In this document: piece after piece, positions 1,797-57,387 of the stretch | How positions within the stretch are numbered: position 1 is the first letter of the stretch | Layout of the letters: the number at the start of each line of letters is the position of its first letter | NCBI GenBank assembly: GCA_964522165.1 | Contig: CAZFVV010000007.1 | Span: 8,130 to 72,129 of the forward strand | Source: an uncultured Calditrichaceae bacterium | GTDB lineage: Bacteria; Calditrichota; Calditrichia; RBG-13-44-9; J075 | Direction: 5' to 3' | Length of the DNA: 64,000 nt | Translations under genes and position numbers: made by a program | The notes under the pieces: model-generated | What the model saw: only the letters and a program-made list of their open reading frames with translations | Told to the model about the DNA's origin: nothing | Database searches by the model: none

Positions 1797-1855
1797 AGCG
1801 TGAAACCCGCCAACGGGATTTTCCGTGTTGCTAAACAGTTATTCGAGGGAAAAAT

Positions 1856-2533
1856 ATGGCAGAGGAAATGAAAGAACGCCCCAGGTTCTATCGCTCCCGC
1901 AGCGACCGCTATTTGGGAGGAGTGTGCGGCGGCATCGCGGCATATTTCCAGATAGACAGCAATATGGCCCGGCTCTTGTTCGTGATTGCGTCCTTCTTTT
2001 GGGGAACCGGTCTCATTATCTATCTCGCCGCGCTGGTACTGGTGCCGGAAAATCCCGATGAATCCGCCGAACCCGGCGAAAGAACCATCGATAACACTTT
2101 ATTTATAGGGATTATCTTTATCTTCTTCGGCGTATTGTTGCTCTCCTGGCAATTTGACCTGTTTCGTTTTTTTTCGGTTCTCGACCTGCCCTGGACGACT
2201 ATCTGGGCGATCTTTTTGATTTCCATCGGAGGTTTGATTCTGTTTGCGCAATGGCAGCAGCAAACCAACGCGGAAACAGGAGGGGCGGAGAGCGGCAGGG
2301 AAAGCGGGGAGCAGGACAAATCCGGCCTGCGCGGGTTGGATATTCACCGCTCCCGGTCCGACCGTAAGATTGGCGGGATATGCGGCGGGTTGGCGAATCA
2401 TTTCAATATCGATTCCTCCATCGTGCGCCTGGGCTGGGTTTTGCTGACGGTGCTCTCCAAGGGCCTGGGGGTGTTGATTTATATTGCACTGATGTTCGTA
2501 TTGCCGGAAGAATCCGGCGAGCAGGTGGTTTGA
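1856..2533 (+). CDS. PspC-domain membrane protein (two PspC segments)
   Basis: Two copies of the PspC signature (RSRSDRYLGGVCGGIAAYFQID; RSRSDRKIGGICGGLANHFNID) are separated by TM helices. Confidence 0.85.
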   Translation: MAEEMKERPRFYRSRSDRYLGGVCGGIAAYFQIDSNMARLLFVIASFFWGTGLIIYLAALVLVPENPDESAEPGERTIDNTLFIGIIFIFFGVLLLSWQFDLFRFFSVLDLPWTTIWAIFLISIGGLILFAQWQQQTNAETGGAESGRESGEQDKSGLRGLDIHRSRSDRKIGGICGGLANHFNIDSSIVRLGWVLLTVLSKGLGVLIYIALMFVLPEESGEQVV

Positions 2534-3090: not shown

Positions 3091-3347
3091 CGTTAAGGTG
3101 TCTTATAACGTGGTCTTTAACAACTTATGGGTTGCAAACCCATACGTGGTTACAGAGTTCGTTTCCGAAGCTCCCCTCCCAGGAGGGGTCGGGGGTGGGT
3201 TGTGTGGTGCACAGACTGGCTCGGCTCCAGGAATTCTCTCCGCGGTGTGCCCCCTGGCCCACCCCTTAATCCCCTGCCAGGAGGGGAAGGGGAGTCGCCG
3301 CTACTTGATACTCGCCAAAATTGTCAGAGACCAGGTGATAAGACAGG
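3091..3347. repeat. composite palindromic element: ~34-bp terminal inverted repeats enclosing G/C-rich 'CCAGGAGGGG' modules
   Basis: 3091-3124 (cgttaaggtgtcttataacgtggtctttaacaac) is the imperfect reverse complement of 3317-3347 (aaaattgtcagagaccaggtgataagacagg). The same arm motif recurs at 22605-22759 and 33741-33777. The inner part, 3170-3295, carries two 'ccaggagggg' modules. Confidence 0.75.
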
Positions 3348-12634: not shown

Positions 12635-15600
12635 TTATACTTCCTTAATACGATTCTCTTCGACGGCATATTCAGACGGCAATACTCCGAATTGCTGGCG
12701 GAAACAGCGGCTAAAATAGGAGGGGTCGCTGAAACCGACCTGGTAAGCGATTTCAGCGACGGTGCCAGAACGCTTCTCTAATAATTGCGCCGCTCTCTTC
12801 AAGCGTATGGTACGGATAAAATCGACCGGGGATTGATCCGTCAACGCTTTCAGCTTGCGGTGAAGCTGCCCGCGGCTTAAACCGATTTCCCGCCCGAACT
12901 GCTCGACCGAAAAATTTTCGTCCGAAATATAACGGTCGGTAATGTCCATAGCGCGCTGCAAAAATTTTTCATCCGCAGAGGTAATGGCGATATCTTTCGG
13001 CTGTAATTTGATCTCTTTGCCAAAGCGCTCCCGTAATCTGCGGCGCTGCTCGATGAGGTTCTTCACCCGCACCCACAATTCTTTGGAATCGAAGGGTTTG
13101 ACTAAGTAATCGTCCGCTCCCAGGGTCAATCCTTCCAGCTTGCTTTCCCCGGAAGATTTGGCGGTGAGGAGTATCAGCGGGATGTGGCTGGTGCGCTGGT
13201 CGGTCTTGAGTTTTTCGCACAGTTGATAGCCGTCCATCTTCGGCATCATGACGTCGCTGATGATCAAATCGGGCAGGGTATCGGAAGCCATATCCAGCCC
13301 CGCCTGGCCATCTTCGGCTTCCAACACCTGGCAGTAATCGAGCAACTGGCCGCGGATATAGGCGCGCATGTCCGGGTTATCTTCTACAATAAGGAGGATG
13401 GGAGACTCGCCCCCGGTTCCCGGAAACTCTACACTCTCCCCTGCTCCTCCTTCGCTTGCCGGGGAGGAAGCGTTTCGAGTTTCCAACCCCGTTTCGAGAA
13501 CAATCGTCTCTGCTTTTCCCTTTGATAAGGGGGCAGTAAGGAGGGGAGGCTCTGTTTCAGCCAAAATTTCATCTTCCCGCAGATGCGCTTTCTCCAAGGG
13601 CAGCAGAATGGTAAATTCCGCGCCCCTTCCCGCCTCGCTATTCACGGAAATTTTGCCGTGGTGCAATTCCACCAATTCCCGGGTCAATGCCAGGCCGATG
13701 CCGCTGCCTTGCTGGTCCTTGGAATAGCCTTCCCCGCTGCTGTAGAAGCGGTCGAAGATATGCGGAAGATGCTGCGGAGAGATGCCGGGGCCGGTATCGC
13801 GCACGCGGATTTCTAACATCCCCCCTGCCCCCCCTTCAAAGGGGGGAGGCGGCGGGATACCCCCCTTTGAAGGGGGGGCAGGGGGGATGTCAACCGCCAC
13901 GATGATTTCTCCGCCTGCCGGGGTAAATTTAAAGGCATTGGAAAGCAGATTGATAAACACTTTTTCCAACTTGTCCGGGTCAAAATAAATCGGCGGCAGG
14001 TTTTCCGGGGATTGGAAGCGCAAATCAATCTTGCGCTGCCTGGTCAGGGATTCAAAGGAGAATACGATTCCTTTCAGAAATGCCAGCAAATCCCCTGGGC
14101 GCGCTTGGAGCTTTAATTTTCCGGCTTCCAGGCGGGAGAGGTCTAACAACTGGTTGATCAAGCGCAGCAGGCGCTGCCCGTTGCGCCGCATCATACTCAA
14201 ATCCCGGCGGGTTTCCCGGTCAGGAATTCGCTGATAAATAGTCTCGATCGGTCCCAAAATCAAGGTGAGGGGGGTACGAAATTCGTGGGAAATATTCGCA
14301 AAAAAGCGCGATTTCATCCGGTCGAGTTCTTTTAACTTCTCCGCTTCTGCCTTTTCCAGCTTCAGATGGTACTTCCATCGCTGCCGGTTTAATTCATAGC
14401 GGCGCAGGCCGTAGAGCAGGCCGAGAATCAGCAGACCGTAAATTGTATATGCCCAAGCGGTTCGCCACCAGGGCGGAGGGATGATCAACCTGACCGAAGC
14501 GCCGGTTTCGTTCCAGATGCCGTCGCTATTCGTGCCCTTTACCCGAAAAACGTACTCGCCCGGGGGCAAAAAAGAAAAATTCGCCTTGCGATCGCTGCCG
14601 CAATAGATCCAATCCGGGTTCAGGCCCTGCATCTTATAGGCGTATTGATTCCTGTGGATGTTGCTGTAATCCAGGGCATTGAATTCAAAAGAGACCGCAT
14701 TAGTCTGATGGGACAACTCGATGGTTGGATTTTCCGATACCGGCGTTGCCAAATGTATCCAGCCGGTCGAGGCATCCGTTTTCGAGGGATCGCTATATTG
14801 AAAATTGGTAATCACAACCGGGGGAAAATAGGGATCATCGCGAATGTCCTCCGGATAAAAGCTATTCAAACCTTTAACGCCGCCGAAAAACATTTCCCCA
14901 TCCGTGGCTTTATGATAAGCAAAGCGGTTGAACTCGTTGTTCTGCAGCCCGTCTTCGACGGTATAAATGCGAAACGTCCCGGTTTGGGGATTGAATTTTG
15001 CCAGCCCCCGGTTGGTGCTCATCCACAGGTTGCCGGCATCATCCGGCAGAATTCCGTAAATCGTATTACTGGGCAGCCCCTGCGCTTCGGTGTAAGATTT
15101 AAAGGATTCCGTTTCGCGGTCAAAACGGTTCAGGCCGAATCCGGCGGTGCCGATCCATAAATATCGCGACGGTTCCCGGGAATCCGGCGCAATGGTAAAA
15201 ATGTTATCCCCGCTCAAGCTCCGGGAATTGCCGGGAGCATTGCGATAGTGTTTGATAAACGCTTCCCGTTGCGGATCGAAGCAAAAAAGGCCGTTAAAGG
15301 TGCCGATCCATAGCCGGCCGTCCTCATCCTGGTAGAAACAGGGAGCGGTTTCCCGGGTTGCGACAACCACGTGGGCTTCTTCGCCGGCGCCGGGGTAAAA
15401 ATCATAGCGTTTGAATTGCCCGGTGGTTTGGTCTAAACAGAGGAGGGTTCGGGGATCGACCACGCACCATACATTGTCGGATTGATCAATGTAGATTTGC
15501 CTGATGCTCTCGAAATCACTGTTTTTTGTTATGAATCGTTTTTCGGTTCGGTTCCGGGGATCGATACAAATCAAATCGCCCTGCTCGCCGCCGATTAACC

Positions 15601-17071
15601 ATAAGTTGCCCCGGCGATCCTGGGCGACTACGTCCGCATCGTAGCCTTCCCCCGGCGTTGCCGTAGCCCGGGGTTGACCCATAAATTGAGTGGTGGATTT
15701 GCCGGTATCACGGTTTACCTGGAATAACAGAACGGAAGTGTACCAGAGCCGGTTCTCGTGCTGGCGGTCTTTCAGGATAGAATTGATGCTGTGATCCCTG
15801 GTGGAACCGCTCTTCCATTTCAAGGGGTCGCGACTTTGAAAATCCGGATAGGCAAAGCGAATGGTTTTGGGATCAAATTTATACAGGCCGTAACCGTTGC
15901 TGCCCATCCACAGAACTCCCCCGCGGTCGCGATAAATTGATTCGATATAACCTTGAATTCTGCCCGCTTCATGGGAGCCGGGTTTTACATAAAGATAGGT
16001 TTCCGAAGCGGTTTCGAATACATAATACCCGCCCGCGTAGCTGGAAAACCACAACAGATCGCCGGGTGTTTCGCTATCGCGGTTGCCCGCGGGGTAACGT
16101 AGTCGCGCCGGGGTAGGTAAGCCGTGCAAATTAAAATACTCGGTAATTTTGGACGGAAAATCATCGGGCAGGGGATAGAGGATAAATTGCCGCTTCGAGC
16201 GGTCGAAACGCGCCATTCCTTTGCCGGTCATTATCCACACCGCCCCCCGGGAATCCTCGAACAGCGGGCCGCCCTTGATTTGCAGTGCGGCTTGAGATGC
16301 TGCCCCGCTCCAGGCGGTATCCGGCGCTTCCAGGAATAAAGAAGTGCTGATATGGTTTGTAAAAGGGTCATTTACCGTAACCCACAGGCCTCCCCGGCGG
16401 TCAAACAACAGGTACTCAATATTCAATGCAGCTTTGGAATAACGGGTTACCCGGTAGGCCGGTGTCTCAGCCGGCGGATTTTTTTTATCGCGCCGGTCGG
16501 CTTGCGGGGCGAGCCTGTTCAGACCGCTGCGCTTGGTTCCGATCCACAACGCCCCGCTGGTATCCTCCGCCATCACGGTAATGGAATTGCTGCTCAGGCT
16601 GCGAGAATTGCCCGGTTCATTTTTAAAGCGTCGAAAAGTGTTTTCTTTGCGATTGAAGAGATTCAGCCCTTTTTCGCGGGTTCCCACCCACAGCCGGTTT
16701 TGGCTGTCCTCAAAAAGCGCAAACACATAATTGTCTGAAATGGAGGTCGAATCGGTAGGATCGTGGCGGTAAATAGTAAAGCGCTGGCCGTCGTATCTGT
16801 TCAGCCCGTCCTTGGTGCCGAACCACATATAGCCCAGGTGGTCCTGTAAAATCGCGGCTACCATGCCCTGGGACAGCCCCTCTTCCGCCCCGATGTGTTC
16901 GAAGTGTATCTCCTCGAAGGCCCGGGCCAGGGCCTTTTCTTTAGCTTCTCTTCCGGCCGCGGAGGGCTGCGATTTCACGATCAAGAGCGGAGTGGAATCT
17001 TGCTGCCCAAACGCCCACAACTCCAGCAGCGCGGTTAAAAAAATAGCAATCTTCCAGGATTTCAGCACCAT
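12635..17071 (-). CDS. hybrid two-component system protein (periplasmic propeller sensor, HisKA, HATPase_c, REC, AraC-type HTH)
   Basis: 1478 aa. It has repeated 'two-component regulator propeller'-like segments, a TM helix, the H-box FFANISHEFRTPL, DTGPGI and GSGIGL boxes, a receiver (LLIVEDNPDMR...DVMMPKMDG) and a C-terminal AraC HTH (GFSDPSYFSRCFRQQFG). Confidence 0.92.
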   Translation of the reverse strand: MVLKSWKIAIFLTALLELWAFGQQDSTPLLIVKSQPSAAGREAKEKALARAFEEIHFEHIGAEEGLSQGMVAAILQDHLGYMWFGTKDGLNRYDGQRFTIYRHDPTDSTSISDNYVFALFEDSQNRLWVGTREKGLNLFNRKENTFRRFKNEPGNSRSLSSNSITVMAEDTSGALWIGTKRSGLNRLAPQADRRDKKNPPAETPAYRVTRYSKAALNIEYLLFDRRGGLWVTVNDPFTNHISTSLFLEAPDTAWSGAASQAALQIKGGPLFEDSRGAVWIMTGKGMARFDRSKRQFILYPLPDDFPSKITEYFNLHGLPTPARLRYPAGNRDSETPGDLLWFSSYAGGYYVFETASETYLYVKPGSHEAGRIQGYIESIYRDRGGVLWMGSNGYGLYKFDPKTIRFAYPDFQSRDPLKWKSGSTRDHSINSILKDRQHENRLWYTSVLLFQVNRDTGKSTTQFMGQPRATATPGEGYDADVVAQDRRGNLWLIGGEQGDLICIDPRNRTEKRFITKNSDFESIRQIYIDQSDNVWCVVDPRTLLCLDQTTGQFKRYDFYPGAGEEAHVVVATRETAPCFYQDEDGRLWIGTFNGLFCFDPQREAFIKHYRNAPGNSRSLSGDNIFTIAPDSREPSRYLWIGTAGFGLNRFDRETESFKSYTEAQGLPSNTIYGILPDDAGNLWMSTNRGLAKFNPQTGTFRIYTVEDGLQNNEFNRFAYHKATDGEMFFGGVKGLNSFYPEDIRDDPYFPPVVITNFQYSDPSKTDASTGWIHLATPVSENPTIELSHQTNAVSFEFNALDYSNIHRNQYAYKMQGLNPDWIYCGSDRKANFSFLPPGEYVFRVKGTNSDGIWNETGASVRLIIPPPWWRTAWAYTIYGLLILGLLYGLRRYELNRQRWKYHLKLEKAEAEKLKELDRMKSRFFANISHEFRTPLTLILGPIETIYQRIPDRETRRDLSMMRRNGQRLLRLINQLLDLSRLEAGKLKLQARPGDLLAFLKGIVFSFESLTRQRKIDLRFQSPENLPPIYFDPDKLEKVFINLLSNAFKFTPAGGEIIVAVDIPPAPPSKGGIPPPPPFEGGAGGMLEIRVRDTGPGISPQHLPHIFDRFYSSGEGYSKDQQGSGIGLALTRELVELHHGKISVNSEAGRGAEFTILLPLEKAHLREDEILAETEPPLLTAPLSKGKAETIVLETGLETRNASSPASEGGAGESVEFPGTGGESPILLIVEDNPDMRAYIRGQLLDYCQVLEAEDGQAGLDMASDTLPDLIISDVMMPKMDGYQLCEKLKTDQRTSHIPLILLTAKSSGESKLEGLTLGADDYLVKPFDSKELWVRVKNLIEQRRRLRERFGKEIKLQPKDIAITSADEKFLQRAMDITDRYISDENFSVEQFGREIGLSRGQLHRKLKALTDQSPVDFIRTIRLKRAAQLLEKRSGTVAEIAYQVGFSDPSYFSRCFRQQFGVLPSEYAVEENRIKEV
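13817..13889. repeat. perfect 30-bp inverted repeat (13-nt spacer) lying inside the kinase CDS, in frame
   Basis: 13817-13846 catcccccctgcccccccttcaaagggggg is the exact reverse complement of 13860-13889 cccccctttgaagggggggcaggggggatg. On the coding strand it encodes ~IPPAPPSKGGIPPPPPFEGGAGGM. Confidence 0.9.
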
Positions 17072-17471: not shown

Positions 17472-20400
17472 CTACTTCATAAGCAACAGCTTGCGGTCGG
17501 CGTTAAACTTCCCGGCTTTCATCCGCAGGAAGTACATTCCCGAGGGCACTGGCTGGTTCTGGTCATTTTTGCCTTCCCAGCGTACCAGGTAGGTTCCGGC
17601 CTGCTGCTTTCCGTTCACCAGGGTTTGCACCTTCTGCCCCAACACGTTATACACCACGATCTGCACGTCCACCGCTTCCGGCAGTTGGTAGTGGATTTCC
17701 GTGGCCGGGTTGAAGGGGTTGGGATAGTTATCCAGCGCAAAGGATGCCGGCGCTTCGTTCGTCCCCGGGGCGTCCACTACTTTTACCGCCGGCAACAGGT
17801 CGGTAAACGTTTGCGCCGCAGCCATGGCGCTGAAGCTCAAGGAAACGGGAGCGTTCCCAAGCGTTTGCGCATTTCCCCTCACGATGAAGCGGGCGTTCAG
17901 AACGTTCACCATGCCTTCAGCGCCCTGGGGGTAGGCGTGGGCGGCGATCAATTGACCCCGTTTGGCATTGAGGTCGTTCACCACCGGATTCCCGAATCCT
18001 TCCGCAGCGCCGCCATCGAAGCCGGTGAATTCCAGTAAGGCGGGATCCCAGGCCATGGTCATGGTGTAACTGCCTAATTTTTGACCGGATTTCGCCATGT
18101 TGACCATTACCGGAACGTCCAGGGCCTGGCCGGATAAATTCAGGGCGGCATAGGTCTGTATTTCAGCGCCTTGCGCAACCGGCGCAACGGTTGATTTGCC
18201 GAGCGGAGCGGGCGCCGGTAAGCAGACCGGGGTGCCCACCGGGAAGGGTACCGGGAACCCGACTTCCCAGCTCAGGGTGACCAGCGCATCGGTGGAGTTG
18301 GTTAGGCCGTCTTGCGTCGCGTCGCCGAAACCAATGGCAATACGATCCAGGAAGGGCTGGGGCAGCGGGAAGCCGGTGTCGAATGAGAGCATCAGCAGGG
18401 CGTCCAGGGAGTTGACCGCATTATCGCCGTTGATGTCGCCCAGCAAGCCCGGGGTGCAGGTAGTAACGATATTGATGCAAGCCCCGTTCACGGTCAAGAA
18501 GGGCAGTAGATTGGTGAAGGACCCTGCCGCAGCCATGGCGGAGAATTGTACATCCAGGCAGCCGTTGGTTCCTATCGCCCCAACTGCATCAAAACTTACA
18601 TTCAATATATCAACCAGGCCCGCGGCGCCGGTGGCTTTGGCCCCGTTGAACACGATTACCCCGTTGGCGGCATTCCCGTCGTTCACAAACCCGGTAAAAC
18701 CGGAGAGGATTCCGGAATTTCCGGTGTAACTGAAATGGGCCGGATTCCAGGTGAGGGTGGCGGTAAAGCTGCCCAAAAGTTCATTCGGTGCGGGCATGTT
18801 GCTCATATCCACTTTAACCTCGGCAGTAAAGTTACCGCCCTGGGGTACGGTGGGGGGGCAATTTACCGAACCGGTGACCTGCCCGGTGACGGTCGTTTCG
18901 AACAGGCCCAGGTAAGCGGCCATCAAATCCGTCTGGTTATTAGCCATCAGCTCCAGGCCGTGGGGGGTTATTTTATAGAGGGGTTTTTCGGCGGAGCGAT
19001 GAACCTTCGCTGTGGAGGGGAAAGCGATTCTTTTAACTACCTTTCGAGTGGTTTGATTCGCCGGGCGGGCTTTATAAGTTCCTTCCTGCGCTTCCTGCGG
19101 CGCGAAGTTCTTCACCACCCGGGTTTCCGGATTCAGGGGCGCGGGAGAGCTCATCATCCCGCCGAAGGAGGGAACCACCCCAATGGCTTTTCCGTCGCCG
19201 GGGCCGTAGCCGGTATTATACAACCCGTGGATGTCGGTATTGGCGTCATTCTGCCAGATGGCGCTGGAGCCAATCGCCGATAGCTCATCCATGAAGCTGT
19301 TATCACCGTTATAGTCAAAGGTAAATGCGGACAGTTGATTGAGACCAATTAGCCCGGCGACATCTCCCTGGCCGTCTCCAAGAGGCGTGCAATCAAACCA
19401 GGGGTTAATATTGTAACCCCCGGCGCTTACCGGATCATAGGCGAAGCAGTCGCCCCCTTCCAGGTAGATCCTTCCGCCGTTGGCCAGGTAGGTTTCTAAA
19501 GCTGCGGCTTCCGGGTCGCCGGCGCCTAAGATGTGGTTGTTGGAAAAGATACCCAGCACCACCCAAACCGCATCGAACTGGCTGAGGTCGTTGCCGAACT
19601 CGAAGAGATTATCGGTCACCACGGCGCTGCGGCCGTTAGCCACCAGGGCGTTAAAAATACTGTCGCCGCTGGCGGCGCTGGCCCCGGCAACGTCCGCCGG
19701 CACCCATACCAGGTGATCCGGGGTAGCGGGAGCCAAACCGAAGAAGTTGACGACGGCGGCCATCAGGTCATCTTTGGTGCTGGGGGCGACAGCGTCGGTC
19801 AATTCCGCCAGAGCATAGGAGAAGCAGAAGGTCTTCTGCCCGGAAGCGCCGCTATGCTGCGCCGCTACATTCCCGTAACCGGATTCCATAAAGGCAATGG
19901 TACCGCCGCCGGCAGTATAGGTGTCGATAAACGTATTATTGACCTGTGTAGAAGCAGTAAATAGCATCCCGTCTGCAAGGGTGCCGGCCTGTCCCTGCAA
20001 CCCATTGATGACATTGGTGCCGCCGTCTGCCGCGTCGGTTAATCCGAATAGATTATGCAAAGCTGTATTCGCACCCTGGTCGAACCCTAAGGCGTCGCCG
20101 CCTTCCAGGTACACCTTGCCGCCGGCCTGGAGATAGGCTTGCACGGCCGCGGCCATGGTATTGTCAAAAACCGTGAGGGTGCTGCCGTTCGCGCCATAAT
20201 TGCCGAAAGACAGGAATACCGCATCGTAACCGATCAGGGAAGCAGGGAAAACGTTGGTATAGGTGGTGGTCAGACCGGCGTTGGTCAAATAAGTGTTAAT
20301 ATATGCGCCGCTGTAATCCTGGCCGCCTAAGGCGCCTTCCCAGACTAAAATGCCGGAGTTCGCGCCGGTCCCCAGATTAAACGCGCCAATACGCGTTTTC

Positions 20401-22028
20401 CAGTTGAAAGCACTTGAGGTCGCATAATATTCGTTGGTATACCAAAATGTTGCATCGTCGTTGGGATCCACAGTCATCATAGTATAGTCACCCCAACGGT
20501 TGGGGTTGGTTTGCGAGCCAGTACCCGCAAAAATGCTTTCCTCTGCTACATCCATCACTCCCGGCGCAGCGCCTGCGGTGTGGCCGGTGAAGCGAATGGA
20601 AGGAAAGGTGGTGCTGCTGGATACTGAATAGCCCAGGGCGATGTTTCCCATTCCATCCATGGCAATACTGCCCATCCAGCGGTGATCGTTGTCCGGGGCG
20701 TAAGTGCCTTGCTGGAAAATACTCCATCCGCCGCCGCTATTGCGTAACTCATACCAGCGGATACCGGCATGATTTGTCCCCACATCAACAGTATGGTTGG
20801 TTACCATTGACTTATGAGTGCCGAAGTCGCGGTATTGGAGGCTGAACATCGTAAAATGGGAAAGGATATCCAGTCCCTGTGCGGTACCGGGCTGCGGTAT
20901 ATCAGTGGTAAATACACCGTCATAAGGAGTTACCGGCAGGAAGGTTGGCCCGGTAAAAGTGGATGCGGGTAGATTGTTCCAATTGGGGGTAAGCTCAAAC
21001 AATGCCAGCCTGTCAGACGGAGCGCCGGTCAGCCCGTCATCCTGGTGTCCTACAATCGGAATCGGGGTTCCAGGAGCGGGAGCAGGGCCATCAAGATCAG
21101 CCGAAATGAAACCATCTGAGCCGATCCCGGGAAGCAAAGCAGAGATATTGAATACCAACATTTGTGCAGGATTCCCGGCTAACATTTTATTGCGTTCCAG
21201 GGCACCGGCTTTCATACTAAAACCACCGCCGTTTGGGAATACTCGATAAGTTGCGGTATAAGCATCGCCCCACACACCGAACTTGGGATAATCGGGAAAA
21301 TCGGTAGTAAAATTAAATTGATAGCGATAATATGCCCCGGTAGGATCCGGTGTTTGGGAGCAGGCGACACAAATGGATTGGTTATTCGGATCATCGACTG
21401 CAAATTGGCTCAAAAACCAGCGATCAGCCAACTGGTCATAGAGAACGATCGGGTCGCCGTTGTTATTCGTTTCACACGGTCCGCCAAAACCGGCCCATAA
21501 AGTGTTGATGTCGAAAGGACCCAGTACGCTATTGCCCGCCTTATCAAATATTTCATAGACTGAGTTAGCCATTTGAACATAGTGATTTGGCCCGACATCG
21601 CCGTTCTGATCCGGCGGCGCTCCGCCACCACCGATGTTATCTCCTACTTCCAATCCATCAAAACTCAGGAGCACGGTACGAGAGCTATTTTCACCTTGCC
21701 AGTCTTGAAGCGATGGATCTTCTATAAAAGGCTGATCTTTAACCAGACCCTCAAAAGGGTATGGCTTAAGGGGAATTATTTTCTGCTCGCCGGTAGAGGC
21801 CGGGAGTTTATAAATTTTAACCTGTTCACTTAATGTAAGAGACTGGTCGTTTCTTACGGATGTCAGTACCTTTTCCGGCTTGACAGTTTGTGACTGCGAA
21901 TTATCAGCAATCTGCTGGCTGGTTTGGGGGCGTTTTTTCTGGGCAAAGAGCGAAGTGGCCAGGCAAACCATTGCCAAAAAAATTATTGAAAATCCGCGAA
22001 GCATATAATTCTTGTTTAGTCGGTACAT
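17472..22028 (-). CDS. giant secreted protein: N-terminal propeller-like region, two ~200-aa internal repeats, cohesin-dockerin-cohesin modules, T9SS C-terminal sorting domain
   Basis: It has a signal peptide (FSIIFLAMVCLATSLFAQ). Two repeats carry 'YLQAGGKVYLEGGDALGFD' and 'YLANGGRIYLEGGDCFAYD'. Dockerin-type Ca-binding pair GDINGDNAVNSLDALLMLS / GDATQDGLTNSTDALVTLS. Cohesin-like blocks (FTATLTWNPAHFSYTG; YTMTMAWDPALLEFTG). The C-terminus is 'NYPNPFNPATEIHYQLP...RKLLLMK'. Confidence 0.85.
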   Translation of the reverse strand: MYRLNKNYMLRGFSIIFLAMVCLATSLFAQKKRPQTSQQIADNSQSQTVKPEKVLTSVRNDQSLTLSEQVKIYKLPASTGEQKIIPLKPYPFEGLVKDQPFIEDPSLQDWQGENSSRTVLLSFDGLEVGDNIGGGGAPPDQNGDVGPNHYVQMANSVYEIFDKAGNSVLGPFDINTLWAGFGGPCETNNNGDPIVLYDQLADRWFLSQFAVDDPNNQSICVACSQTPDPTGAYYRYQFNFTTDFPDYPKFGVWGDAYTATYRVFPNGGGFSMKAGALERNKMLAGNPAQMLVFNISALLPGIGSDGFISADLDGPAPAPGTPIPIVGHQDDGLTGAPSDRLALFELTPNWNNLPASTFTGPTFLPVTPYDGVFTTDIPQPGTAQGLDILSHFTMFSLQYRDFGTHKSMVTNHTVDVGTNHAGIRWYELRNSGGGWSIFQQGTYAPDNDHRWMGSIAMDGMGNIALGYSVSSSTTFPSIRFTGHTAGAAPGVMDVAEESIFAGTGSQTNPNRWGDYTMMTVDPNDDATFWYTNEYYATSSAFNWKTRIGAFNLGTGANSGILVWEGALGGQDYSGAYINTYLTNAGLTTTYTNVFPASLIGYDAVFLSFGNYGANGSTLTVFDNTMAAAVQAYLQAGGKVYLEGGDALGFDQGANTALHNLFGLTDAADGGTNVINGLQGQAGTLADGMLFTASTQVNNTFIDTYTAGGGTIAFMESGYGNVAAQHSGASGQKTFCFSYALAELTDAVAPSTKDDLMAAVVNFFGLAPATPDHLVWVPADVAGASAASGDSIFNALVANGRSAVVTDNLFEFGNDLSQFDAVWVVLGIFSNNHILGAGDPEAAALETYLANGGRIYLEGGDCFAYDPVSAGGYNINPWFDCTPLGDGQGDVAGLIGLNQLSAFTFDYNGDNSFMDELSAIGSSAIWQNDANTDIHGLYNTGYGPGDGKAIGVVPSFGGMMSSPAPLNPETRVVKNFAPQEAQEGTYKARPANQTTRKVVKRIAFPSTAKVHRSAEKPLYKITPHGLELMANNQTDLMAAYLGLFETTVTGQVTGSVNCPPTVPQGGNFTAEVKVDMSNMPAPNELLGSFTATLTWNPAHFSYTGNSGILSGFTGFVNDGNAANGVIVFNGAKATGAAGLVDILNVSFDAVGAIGTNGCLDVQFSAMAAAGSFTNLLPFLTVNGACINIVTTCTPGLLGDINGDNAVNSLDALLMLSFDTGFPLPQPFLDRIAIGFGDATQDGLTNSTDALVTLSWEVGFPVPFPVGTPVCLPAPAPLGKSTVAPVAQGAEIQTYAALNLSGQALDVPVMVNMAKSGQKLGSYTMTMAWDPALLEFTGFDGGAAEGFGNPVVNDLNAKRGQLIAAHAYPQGAEGMVNVLNARFIVRGNAQTLGNAPVSLSFSAMAAAQTFTDLLPAVKVVDAPGTNEAPASFALDNYPNPFNPATEIHYQLPEAVDVQIVVYNVLGQKVQTLVNGKQQAGTYLVRWEGKNDQNQPVPSGMYFLRMKAGKFNADRKLLLMK

Positions 22029-55711: not shown

Positions 55712-55759
55712 CCGGCGACTTTAGCTCACTTTAGTCACTTATAAAAGGGTATTTAAGGC
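55712..55759. repeat. inverted repeat, arm downstream (3') of rnpB
   Basis: ccggcgactttagctcactttagtcacttataaaagggtatttaaggc. Its reverse complement matches 56189-56236 at 46 of 48 positions. Confidence 0.9.
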
Positions 55760-56196
55760 AAATCGATAAGCCGAATTCTGTTCTCCCCGGGAAACGGGGA
55801 GCGGCGGCCATTTATCTATGCGGCCTACCCGGGAGTTCACTCCCCGGCACGGTCGCGCCGGGGGGAACGAAGCGAGCAACCTCGTTTTTCCGTGGAAAAT
55901 TCTCCCCTATTTGGCCTTGCTCCGGATGGGGTTTATCCGGCCCGGGTGTTGCCACCTTTTCCGAAAGGAAAAATCTCGGCTGCGAGACCGGCCGGTGGGC
56001 TCTTACCCCGCCTTTTCACCCTTACCCCGACATCGCAGATGTCGGGGCGGTATGGTTTCTGTGACACTTTCCATCCCGCGGCGCTTGCGCGTCGCGAGTC
56101 CCGGATTCTCTCCGGGCATCCTGCTCTGCGGAGTTCGGACTTTCCTCCCCGGCGCCGGGCAGCCGGCGCCGCAGCGACCGCCTGATTCGCCTTAAA
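55752..56196 (-). ncRNA. rnpB: RNase P RNA, bacterial type A
   Basis: The minus strand contains GGGGAGGAAAGUCCGAACUCC, GGUAAGGGUGAAA..GGGGUAAGAGCCCACC, CCGGAGCAAGGCCAAAUAGGGGA, CCCGGGUAGGCCGC and ACAGAAUUCGGCUUAUCG, in the same order as E. coli M1 RNA. P1 pairs AAGGCGAAUC with GAUUUGCCUU. The ends are approximate. Confidence 0.93.
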
Positions 56197-57238: not shown

Positions 57239-57313
57239 ACTTTGTTACGATGTTTATGACAAAGCAAACCGATGTATAAACAAAACCTCAATTTGGTTTC
57301 TCCTTAAAATCAG

Positions 57314-57387
57314 TGGGCCCACCAGGGCTCGAACCTGGGACCAGCCGATTATGAGTCGGCTGCTCTAACCGACTGAGCTATGGGCCC
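57314..57387 (-). tRNA. tRNA with CAT anticodon (elongator Met-like; Ile2/lysidine not excluded)
   Basis: The reverse complement GGGCCCATAGCTCAGTCGGTTAGAGCAGCCGACTCATAATCGGCTGGTCCCAGGTTCGAGCCCTGGTGGGCCCA folds as a cloverleaf with a 7-bp acceptor stem, anticodon loop CUCAUAA and a GGTTCGAGCC T-arm. CCA is not encoded. Confidence 0.9.

Follow-up and report, generated by a model that had tools for sequence, protein, structure and literature searches.

The perfect palindrome that lies in frame within a hybrid histidine kinase gene of the window (the whole 64,000-nucleotide stretch of DNA analyzed here) is, with a probability of roughly 0.78, a doublet of a dispersed repeat family that carries no gene, in which two inverted units, their tails pointing outward, surround a 13-nt spacer. 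Its insertion is an event of the kind represented by the Rickettsia palindromic elements (RPEs), with a mobilizing mechanism that we infer. Rickettsia provides the best-known examples of in-frame palindromic insertions, REP and MITE cases being scattered among other bacteria; the present case carries the phenomenon into free-living Calditrichia and, by way of the repeat family, into many more phyla. A first-pass annotation of the sequence had proposed a G/C-rich palindromic repeat that had entered the gene in frame, was tolerated as a loop and was comparable to the RPEs, a proposal borne out by the indel among homologues, the dispersed family, the modelled coil and the independent assemblies described below.

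Structure of the palindromic element

A repeat search of the window identified inverted repeats at 13816-13846 and 13860-13890, each 31 nt long, 100% complementary and separated by 13 nt. The perfect inverted repeat reported by the first-pass annotation is thus present, with arms of 31 nt rather than 30, one base being added on each side, and each arm does contain its own C-run/G-run sub-hairpin. The components are as follows.

13816..13890, no strand assigned: whole palindromic element, 75 nt (31 + 13 + 31), covering 2 nt of the D1061 codon, the codons of I1062-M1085 and 1 nt of the L1086 codon
13816..13846, minus strand: arm 1, one repeat unit; the coding (minus) strand is CCCCCCTTTGAAGGGGGGGCAGGGGGGATGT and encodes PPFEGGAGGM; the arm fits the family scan pattern and is identical at 31/31 positions to the right-hand unit of the L130/L137 DUF559 cassette
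13828..13846, no strand assigned: arm 1 sub-hairpin, C7 TTCAAA G6
13847..13859, no strand assigned: spacer, 13 nt, AGGCGGCGGGATA on the plus strand, inverted relative to orthologue L001, whose 8-mer GCGGCGGG is the reverse complement of CCCGCCGC in the window
13860..13890, plus strand: arm 2, the arm 1 repeat unit read on the plus strand; the coding strand encodes IPPAPPSKGG
13860..13878, no strand assigned: arm 2 sub-hairpin, C6 TTTGAA G7

Translation confirms that the frame of the 1478-aa kinase ORF is unbroken across the palindrome, where it reads ...GGEIIVAVD-IPPAPPSKGGIPPPPPFEGGAGGM-LEIRVRDTGPGI..., and the estimate of about 24 added residues agrees with the stretch encoded by the element, I1062-M1085. 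The flanks, AC-AT...AT-GT, are themselves palindromic. Folding of the 95 nt spanning the element as a single strand yields -44.9 kcal/mol with a z of -9.4 for DNA, and -79.5 kcal/mol with a z of -8.9 for RNA. At up to three mismatches, the 31-mer occurs in the window at just the two arm positions, and 100 dinucleotide shuffles yielded 0 matches. The window copy contains no ORF of its own, and in Rfam neither the element nor the units of 15 loci reached any family threshold, yielding only weak microRNA-type hairpin matches far below gathering scores.

Insertion site in the host kinase

The host protein satisfies the definition of a hybrid two-component kinase, in which HisKA, HATPase_c, a receiver and an AraC-type HTH follow periplasmic Reg_prop/Y_Y_Y modules. 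Pfam recovered Reg_prop, Y_Y_Y, HisKA, HATPase_c, Response_reg and HTH_AraC/HTH_18, each above its cut-off; the H, N, G1, F and G2 boxes are legible in the translation, and the top PDB matches of the kinase are HK853 and its relatives (E 1e-38). The neighboring gene at 17472-22028, considered as a paralogue for comparison, turned out to be unrelated. The features that define the site are listed here.

12635..17071, minus strand: host gene for a 1478-aa hybrid two-component system protein (ORF list, translation, Pfam), arranged as Reg_prop propellers, Y_Y_Y, TM, HisKA, HATPase_c, receiver and AraC HTH
13891..13911, minus strand: beta-strand EIIVAV(D), residues 1055-1061, directly before the insert (AlphaFold2 strand E156-162 of the 900-1215 fragment)
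13796..13819, minus strand: beta-strand MLEIRVRD, residues 1085-1092, after the insert and leading into the G1 box DTGPGI (AlphaFold2 strand E186-193; HK853 alignment)

Alignment of the EIIVAV(D) strand with YVKVILDE of HK853 places the insert in the ATP-binding domain, at the turn of the beta-hairpin lying between its N and G1 boxes. The AlphaFold2 model of fragment 900-1215, with a mean pLDDT of 84.6 and values of 78-88 over the insert, predicts strands at 156-162 and 186-193 with coil at 163-185, so the structural check suggested earlier returns the insert as a modelled coil between two strands. The insert is also an indel relative to most homologues, as the proposed alignment makes plain: the segment from the N box to G1 spans 22-23 aa in 71 of 116 homologues versus 41 aa in the window kinase. 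The in-frame insertion at a surface position that characterizes RPEs is accordingly found here.

Inserts of at least 8 aa occupy this turn in 43 of 121 homologues and derive from at least four unrelated inverted-repeat families, and the turn between the N box and G1 is an insertion hot spot. An ATP-binding turn that accepts at least four such families offers a natural guide to the insertion-tolerant places of the domain. Persistence of the element would be explained by a length that is a multiple of three, the absence of a stop codon in the frame used, a Pro/Gly-rich coil and a tolerant turn. The catalytic boxes of the kinase are intact, and the insert would have either no effect on the kinase or a mild cost, such as one imposed by a highly stable hairpin in the mRNA.

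A further trace of the family may lie in the linker between the HATPase and receiver domains, although the evidence for it is weak.

13518..13550, no strand assigned: possible decayed single unit, PPLLTAPLSKGK

Within it, 19 nt are 84% similar to the arm; the segment is present in L001 and absent in L003. Another kinase of this kind (L122) carries an intact doublet of the family in its own HATPase-receiver linker.

Orthologues and evolution of the arms

The host gene has syntenic orthologues in Calditrichaceae MAGs. An identical element occurs in an independent JGI assembly (L006), while diverged versions occupy the same codons, in conserved synteny, in two MAGs (L001, L002) and several SRA assemblies (L003-L005); orthologues of 89% and 85% identity carry the diverged element at the same site. 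None of the orthologues recovered has an empty site, and the copy would have been acquired by the common ancestor of the Calditrichaceae clade to which the window belongs.

These comparisons bear on the suggestion that the insert was exapted, that is, that the Pro/Gly-rich loop has a selected role at the protein level, for instance as a docking or spacing element. The insert does stay in frame in three species-level lineages, and the pLDDT over it could be read in the same direction. However, it differs from L001 at 8 of 25 residues, against 150 of 1453 in the remainder of the protein; inversion of the spacer core between the window and L001 (9/13 matches when inverted, 4/13 when direct) has turned IPPP into SGGA; L003 has gained 9 residues; and at this turn homologues bear either peptides derived from unrelated repeats or no such peptide. 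Because divergence is faster in the insert than in the protein around it and unrelated repeats fill that turn in other homologues, the term exapted is unsupported, and such a role is unlikely.

Selection on the hairpin as a nucleic acid, for instance to tune kinase expression through RNase III cleavage or a pause in translation, is equally hard to favor. The perfect 31 bp stem with its very stable RNA fold speaks for it, as does a compensatory change, in which both arms differ from L001 (TGC/GCA in the window, TGT/ACA in L001). Yet the arms of L001 and L003 have decayed, with at least 5 mismatches and a 3-nt deletion, which indicates that pairing is not consistently maintained, and conversion of one arm by the other accounts equally well for the compensatory change.

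The arms of the doublet may evolve in concert, through recombination or templated repair between them; the perfect arms of the window, the change they share relative to the orthologue and the flipped spacer would all follow from such a process, in favor of which L003 also carries an additional, third unit. By our estimate, 62 nt should have accumulated approximately 3-5 substitutions, with P(0) roughly 0.01-0.06, and the perfect state of the window arms could also be chance.

A dispersed family of repeat units

Each window arm corresponds to one unit of the consensus (AAtT)C5-6 TTyGAA G5-7 N2-5 G5-6 ATGT, in which a C5-6/G5-7 hairpin around TTyGAA is followed by a second G-run and ATGT; in a profile built from 154 units, AAtT stands upstream and ATGT marks the tail. 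An exact-pattern scan of species-representative genomes recovered at least 120 stretches in many phyla, including Hydrogenedentota, Bacteroidota, Calditrichia, KSB1, Nitrospirota and others among the stretches listed. The copies are mostly intergenic, the majority lying outside long ORFs. Some consist of a single 28-31-nt unit, and inverted doublets of hairpin units are represented by the window element and by L011, L040, L059, L083, L100, L101 and L168. Intergenic doublets and compact palindromes in six Calditrichia MAGs (L024, L027, L040, L088, L100, L118) place the arms in a dispersed family with copies between genes in other Calditrichia genomes. In-frame copies also occur in genes for LeuRS, RNase HII, penicillin acylase and a PKS and in the linker of another hybrid kinase.

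Neither the 64-kb window nor the orthologous contigs contain a second copy of the true family. A metagenome scan for the window-type arm returned 9 contigs, comprising Tannerella-like elements and two lake contigs with a DUF559 cassette, with no relatives of the window among them. A census of host proteins, conducted with a doubled 48-aa profile of the insert peptide, returned just 31-81-aa "hypothetical proteins" that are translated intergenic doublets. Pro/Gly-rich "loops" and small "hypothetical proteins" can be translated repeats, a warning for metagenomic annotation. A literature search with the unit as a text string retrieved no relevant paper, and the family is apparently undescribed.

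Association with DUF559 genes

Partner loci of the units, but not the window copy of the element, contain a gene for a nuclease of the Vsr/DUF559 fold, and the window encodes no DUF559 gene. Among Bacteroidota, a DUF559 gene lies no more than about 110 nt from units at 8 loci of the repeat-selected sample, and DUF559 genes drawn without regard to units were flanked by units in 4 of 4 cases. The partner-locus proteins match PF04480 at E 1e-27 to 1e-36. DUF559 is a very large family without an assigned function, and 7958 of 8000 scored candidates fall at E<=1e-10. Adjacency was observed exclusively in Bacteroidota or in contigs without taxon assignment, and none was seen at approximately 30 Hydrogenedentota and 6 Calditrichia loci. 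Units lie on both sides of the DUF559 genes in variable orientation; the idea that they are fixed terminal inverted repeats always bracketing the gene was thus rejected, and the variability argues against a simple transposon with such ends.

All-against-all clustering of the ORFs near units left DUF559 as the sole recurrent small partner gene. The other clusters are housekeeping genes (response regulators, ABC ATPases, dehydrogenases, UvrC-type GIY-YIG), and eight cluster representatives, when read, disclosed no recurring transposase family. At 3 loci a tyrosine recombinase lies 400-600 nt away from units, probably by coincidence. Viral contigs compared with the DUF559 profile gave one weak match, and a literature search on DUF559 retrieved nothing on repeats.

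DUF559 emerges from these data as a candidate partner enzyme, and the predicted nuclease would either spread the units or target them. Tentatively, the units and the nucleases might form an unrecognized repeat-plus-nuclease system across several phyla, similar to REP-RAYT but with a Vsr-like PD-(D/E)XK enzyme, whose gene-less doublets repeatedly write Pro/Gly loops into proteins and for which the beta-hairpin turn of the hybrid-kinase HATPase_c domain is a favored landing or survival site.

Comparison with known repeat systems

RPEs are palindromic repeats found in frame in unrelated protein genes, whose products thereby gain surface segments that the fold can accommodate (PMC10969869 and work cited there). 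The window insert resembles them in being in frame, free of stops and modelled as a surface coil. Compared by size and host rather than by sequence, the two differ: RPEs measure about 100-150 bp and form Rickettsia families, whereas the window element has 75 bp, two 31-nt G/C-run units and a family spread over many phyla.

REP and REPIN sequences are hairpin units that occur as singletons, inverted doublets and arrays, with a small nuclease-type gene among the repeats (PMC3733652). The window family shares this architecture of short hairpin units, singletons, doublets and arrays, mostly intergenic and occasionally within genes, together with a small nuclease-type gene, so that a REPIN, a REP doublet mobilized by a RAYT tyrosine transposase, has to be considered (PMC3733652). 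One end of the hairpin in REPs, however, carries a conserved tetranucleotide, GTAG or CGTC (PMC3733652), and the units of the window family bear the tag ACAT/ATGT instead. In addition, a single phmmer query with E. coli RayT found no Y1/HUH match at E<=10 among 9667 six-frame ORFs in 1.1 Mb of unit-bearing loci, and the only small gene recurring next to units encodes a DUF559 PD-(D/E)XK nuclease rather than an HUH tyrosine transposase. A REPIN is, on this evidence, very improbable.

With bacterial MITEs (ERIC, Correia, QMITE1, cyanobacterial MITEs), whose in-frame fusions with host ORFs are not unusual (PMC10969869, PMC5896051), the family shares the nature of small non-autonomous inverted-repeat elements, having terminal inverted repeats, a length within 50-500 bp and multiple dispersed copies. 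In contrast to them, the clustering of ORFs near units revealed no parent insertion sequence with a classical transposase, and no target-site duplication is demonstrable at a site that lacks an empty counterpart among the orthologues.

The Vsr clade of PD-(D/E)XK nucleases, of which DUF559 is a member, includes homing endonucleases of the I-Bth0305I type (PMC3424549, PMC3239194, PMC2677866). These Vsr-like (EDxHD) enzymes set a precedent within this fold for selfish behavior. I-Bth0305I-type enzymes reside in introns, inteins or fractured genes and home to one cognate site, whereas the DUF559 genes are free-standing amid dispersed palindromic units.

An assembly artefact, or a local duplication-inversion outside any repeat family, can be practically dismissed: chimeric reads or template switching can create palindromes, but the same element in independent assemblies excludes the chimera raised by the first-pass annotation, a diverged form exists in sister species, and the identical 31-nt arm recurs in unrelated contigs of 39-43% GC.

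Intergenic modules at 3170-3295

Intergenic modules at 3170-3295 had been put forward as a possible source family for the palindrome. They do share the architecture of the true family, a hairpin followed by ATTAA and a G-run tail, but they belong to a different one, ending in GGGGTGGG rather than GGGGGATGT and lying in opposite orientation.

3173..3200, plus strand: intergenic unit of the cousin family, CCCCTCCCAGGAGGGG TC GGGGGTGGGT
3255..3291, minus strand: second cousin unit in opposite orientation, CCCCTCCTGGCAGGGGATTAAGGGGTGGG on the minus strand

A sibling motif, GGGGATTWAGGGGTGGG, recurs in L153 beside a DUF559 gene and ACAT-type units.

A palindromic insertion in the ATP-binding domain

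The palindrome inside the hybrid kinase gene is probably a repeat-derived, tolerated in-frame insertion, a reading given a probability of about 0.78. The first-pass annotation had recognized its perfect arms but placed their length at 30 nt; each measures 31 nt, one base more per side, and the two are 100% complementary across a 13-nt gap.

12635-17071, minus strand: ORF containing the element
13816-13846: first arm of the inverted repeat
13860-13890: second arm of the inverted repeat

As had also been claimed, each arm contains its own C-run/G-run hairpin. Single-strand folding of the element region yields -44.9 kcal/mol as DNA (z -9.4 against shuffled controls) and -79.5 kcal/mol as RNA (z -8.9), and shuffled windows contain no copy of the arm, approximate ones included. 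The element takes in the whole of codons I1062-M1085, plus 2 nt of codon D1061 and 1 nt of codon L1086; it leaves the reading frame unchanged, and translation runs uninterrupted across it, in agreement with the in-frame claim. Pfam classes the host protein as a hybrid two-component system of the classical type, in which a propeller/Y_Y_Y sensor is combined with HisKA, HATPase_c, receiver and AraC HTH domains. Its translation shows intact H, N, G1, F and G2 boxes.

The stretch from the N box (NAxKFT) to the G1 box (DxGxG) could be measured in 116 of the 120 best kinase homologues; it comprises 22-23 residues in 71 of these 116 versus 41 in the window kinase, which bears out the proposed indel. 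In alignments with HK853 (PDB 2c2a, 3dge and others; E about 1e-38), the extra residues fall in the turn between the YVKVILDE and VLIIVEDNG strands. An AlphaFold2 model of kinase residues 900-1215, based on a 45-sequence alignment (mean pLDDT 84.6, pTM 0.80), likewise predicts the suspected loop as coil between two strands: strand 156-162 (EIIVAVD), coil 163-185 corresponding to the insert (pLDDT 78-88), and strand 186-193, in fragment numbering.

The product of the adjoining gene (17472-22028, minus strand) is 1518 aa long and has dockerin and FlgD_ig domains and a C-terminal sorting domain for type IX secretion; a similar gene is also found upstream of the kinase in the orthologous contigs L001 and L006. 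Elsewhere, the window carries two ordinary housekeeping RNAs, a class A bacterial RNase P RNA (55751-56193, minus strand; 211 bits) and a tRNA-Met (CAT) (57313-57387, minus strand).

Age of the insertion and probable exchange between its arms

The same 75 nt recur unchanged in L006, a JGI contig of separate sample origin, although the gene there has 62 nt differences and its protein is 99% identical. Diverged versions occupy exactly the same codons in two Calditrichaceae MAGs (L001, L002; 89% amino acid identity) and in contigs of several SRA runs (L003-L005; 85%), and downstream synteny is kept in L001-L005, with MOSC, TPR and then MFS/acyltransferase genes. These copies dispose of an assembly artefact, a concern raised at the outset, and the diverged ones indicate that the insertion was already in place before at least three species-level lineages diverged. 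Among the orthologues recovered, none has an empty site. The next homologue (P0004, 58%, different neighbour genes) has an inverted repeat of a different kind in this turn.

A comparison of the kinase gene in the window with that of L001 shows differences at 9% of nucleotides and 15% of four-fold sites; for the arms the figure is 10-13%, so they show no special conservation across species. Despite this divergence, the window arms are still perfectly complementary to each other, with a joint change in both (TGC / GCA versus TGT / ACA in L001); intergenic copies in Calditrichaceae MAG_33 (L040) share the ACA state. The spacer lies in inverted orientation: L001 GAGCGGCGGGGCA matches the reverse complement of window TATCCCGCCGCCT at 9 of 13 positions, sharing an exact 8-mer, versus 4 of 13 in direct comparison, which changes IPPP to SGGA at constant length. 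L003 has a third unit where the spacer stands elsewhere, together with a 3-nt deletion in one arm. The joint arm change, the spacer inversion and the third unit point to arm-arm recombination or hairpin-templated repair, through which the arms would exchange sequence. Such signs of arm conversion and spacer flipping within coding sequence appear to be new.

A repeat family spread across phyla

The unit pattern CCCCCTTNGAAGGGGG N1-8 GGGGGATGT was derived from four kinase copies, and its exact scan across one genome per species returned at least 120 stretches.

Unit loci among the matches listed, assigned by record title
Hydrogenedentota: about 30 loci, at least 14 MAGs
Bacteroidota and allies: about 55 loci, including cultured Pontibacter, Rufibacter, Tannerella forsythia, Capnocytophaga, Aequorivita and Fodinibius
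Calditrichia: roughly 6 loci
Nitrospirota: roughly 6 loci
KSB1: roughly 4 loci
Scalindua, Chlamydiota, Deferribacteres, proteobacteria and others: single loci

A profile of 154 units gives the consensus AAtT-C5-TTyGAA-G5-N2-5-G5-ATGT-t, and the majority of copies lie outside long ORFs. Units occur as singletons, as compact 44-nt palindromes with a TTCGAA centre (L024, L028, L088, L105, L118), as inverted doublets built like the window element, with outward tails and spacers of 11-40 nt (L011, L040, L059, L083, L100, L101, L168), and as tandem arrays (L046, L083, L145). In Hydrogenedentota they form the ends of elements of about 160 nt with a conserved inner GCAACGCGAAGCGTTGC hairpin (L019, L075, L090, L097, L109; e.g. 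L075 3242-3400), none of which contains a gene. About 1 kb from the units of L019 lies an Acido-Lenti-1 RNA motif (1851-1895, plus strand; 41.5 bits, gathering score 37). Rfam returned no family at threshold on the element or on 15 unit-rich loci. The family itself, a G/C-run hairpin plus tail with a near-constant consensus across phyla and a minimum of one 28-31-nt unit, appears to be new.

A second copy of the family is missing from both the 64-kb window and the orthologous contigs. Intergenic doublets and palindromes are present in other Calditrichia genomes (L024, L027, L040, L088, L100, L118), so the lineage does hold the intergenic source family that had been suspected, but the modules at window 3170-3295, first cited as a hint of it, belong to a cousin family. 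Its two units (3173-3200, plus strand; 3255-3291, minus strand) consist of a C4/G4 hairpin, ATTAA or TC, and a GGGG(G)TGGG tail, and face each other in intergenic sequence.

In-frame copies in other proteins

On either strand, the consensus can be read through in two of its three frames, yielding peptides like PPLKGDQGG, SPFEGGxRGM and IPLNPPSKG, and gene callers annotate intergenic doublets as 31-81-aa 'hypothetical proteins'. In-frame copies are found in several genes.

L054: Flavobacteriaceae LeuRS, near KMSKS
L012: RNase HII
L043: penicillin-acylase-family protein
L116: polyketide synthase
L123: membrane protein
L122: another hybrid kinase, intact doublet in the HATPase-receiver linker

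In a Chlamydiota MAG (L053 664-2985, minus strand), the unit IPPLKGDKGGCK fuses apparent sugar (solute)-binding protein and ABC permease ORFs into one 774-aa frame. The HATPase-receiver linker of the window kinase holds a possible decayed single unit (13518-13550; PPLLTAPLSKGK), also seen in L001 and missing from L003.

The insertion event works like that of Rickettsia palindromic elements, as had been proposed, and like in-frame REP and MITE insertions, which are already on record (PMC10969869, PMC3733652). Identity with REP-RAYT is very unlikely: the two REP superfamilies are defined by a GTAG or CGTC tag (PMC3733652), whereas the 154-unit profile has neither, and E. coli RayT as a query brought up no relative from 1.1 Mb of unit loci.

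One turn used by several repeat families

Inserts of at least 8 residues were counted in an alignment of 121 hybrid kinases, and the turn came out as a hot spot for insertion.

Sequences with inserts, by site
Turn holding the element: 43, made up of 36 and 7 at neighbouring alignment positions
HATPase-receiver linker (unstructured): about 40
Each remaining site beyond residue 23: no more than 6 (the N-terminal leader is also variable)

At the DNA level, the inserts in the turn derive from several repeat families.

Unit family: kinases of the window clade, L008 (homologue at 41% identity, with a separate doublet of 72 nt) and L165 (decayed unit)
GATCAGT-type inverted repeat, encoding VISNQ...LITDH: L007, and by peptide P0010 and P0029
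Inverted repeat encoding LRGSD...EIATSAGRQTRND: L163
Inverted repeat with a 14-bp stem, encoding ...HSELV...LKQVQVDKH: L164, and by peptide P0044, P0075, P0066 and P0091

Additionally, the peptide IPPLDKGGKLGGV in P0095 resembles the unit-family peptide at the protein level. Tolerance, in the sense of survivorship, is favoured over targeting to the turn, because the other site rich in inserts, the HATPase-receiver linker, is disordered. Recurrent occupation of a single HATPase_c turn by repeats of unrelated families appears to be new.

DUF559 nuclease genes beside the units

All-against-all ORF comparison of unit-bearing loci revealed one unexpected recurrent family of about 125 aa, directly adjoining units and identified as DUF559 (Pfam PF04480, E 1e-27 to 1e-36); matches to the restriction-endonuclease-like MTES_1575 are weaker. 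Among PD-(D/E)XK nucleases, DUF559 falls in the Vsr clade, as does the homing endonuclease I-Bth0305I (PMC3424549, PMC3239194, PMC2677866). A profile built from five of these proteins detected eight unit-bearing loci (L020, L031, L035, L083, L085, L128, L130, L137), all eight with units no more than about 110 nt from the gene, frequently on both sides. L130 and L137, from lake metagenomes (39-43% GC), share the layout ACATCCCCCCTGCCCCCCTTCGAAGGGGGG - 5 nt - ATG...DUF559... - CCCCCCTTTGAAGGGGGGGCAGGGGGGATGT, and their right-hand unit is identical to the window arm (31/31).

As these loci had been chosen for having units, a second sample of four DUF559 proteins was drawn from a database search without regard to repeats. 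The gene is embedded in units in 4/4, the proteins all being of the subfamily closest to the profile used.

Second DUF559 sample
L139, L145/L146: long-loop unit variants, arrays of up to five
L153: short and long unit variants plus the cousin family
L168: CCTCC/GGAGG variant ending 1 nt upstream of the start codon; doublet with a 13-nt spacer past the stop

Hosts, where nameable, are all Bacteroidota, and unit orientation around the gene is variable; the profile search found no DUF559 in Hydrogenedentota or Calditrichia unit loci or in the window. Residues D56, E67, D69, H73 and R85, invariant across the DUF559 alignment, would fit an active nuclease. This nuclease may either spread the units or use them as its own landing site; that DUF559 and the units form a functional repeat-nuclease system is less likely than not. 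The association of the family with DUF559 genes instead of a transposase appears to be new; literature text searches retrieved no account of the unit or of this association.

In Lewinellaceae L153 (2101-2357), three tandem copies of the cousin motif GGGGATTWAGGGGTGGG lie close to ACAT-type units and the DUF559 gene. In L145 (1081-1500 and 1873-2430), L146 and L147-L152, the gene is bordered by long-loop units in tandem arrays of up to five, and several contigs with an L145-type gene end in or beside arrays, which suggests that the repeats break short-read assemblies. Three loci (L025 6707-7636, L080 354-1763, L128 2-667) have a tyrosine recombinase of Bacteroidota type at a distance of 400-600 nt from units, which may be a coincidence in mobile regions. 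The Flavobacteriaceae LeuRS of L054 (217-3771, minus strand) contains a whole in-frame DUF559 domain at residues 323-426 (PF04480, E 6e-32), immediately ahead of the editing domain and separate from the unit peptide SPFEGGEGDV near KMSKS. A Bacteroidia LeuRS fragment of the same BLAST cluster (L080 6296-7999, minus strand) shows, by eye, an apparent degenerate DUF559-like stretch.
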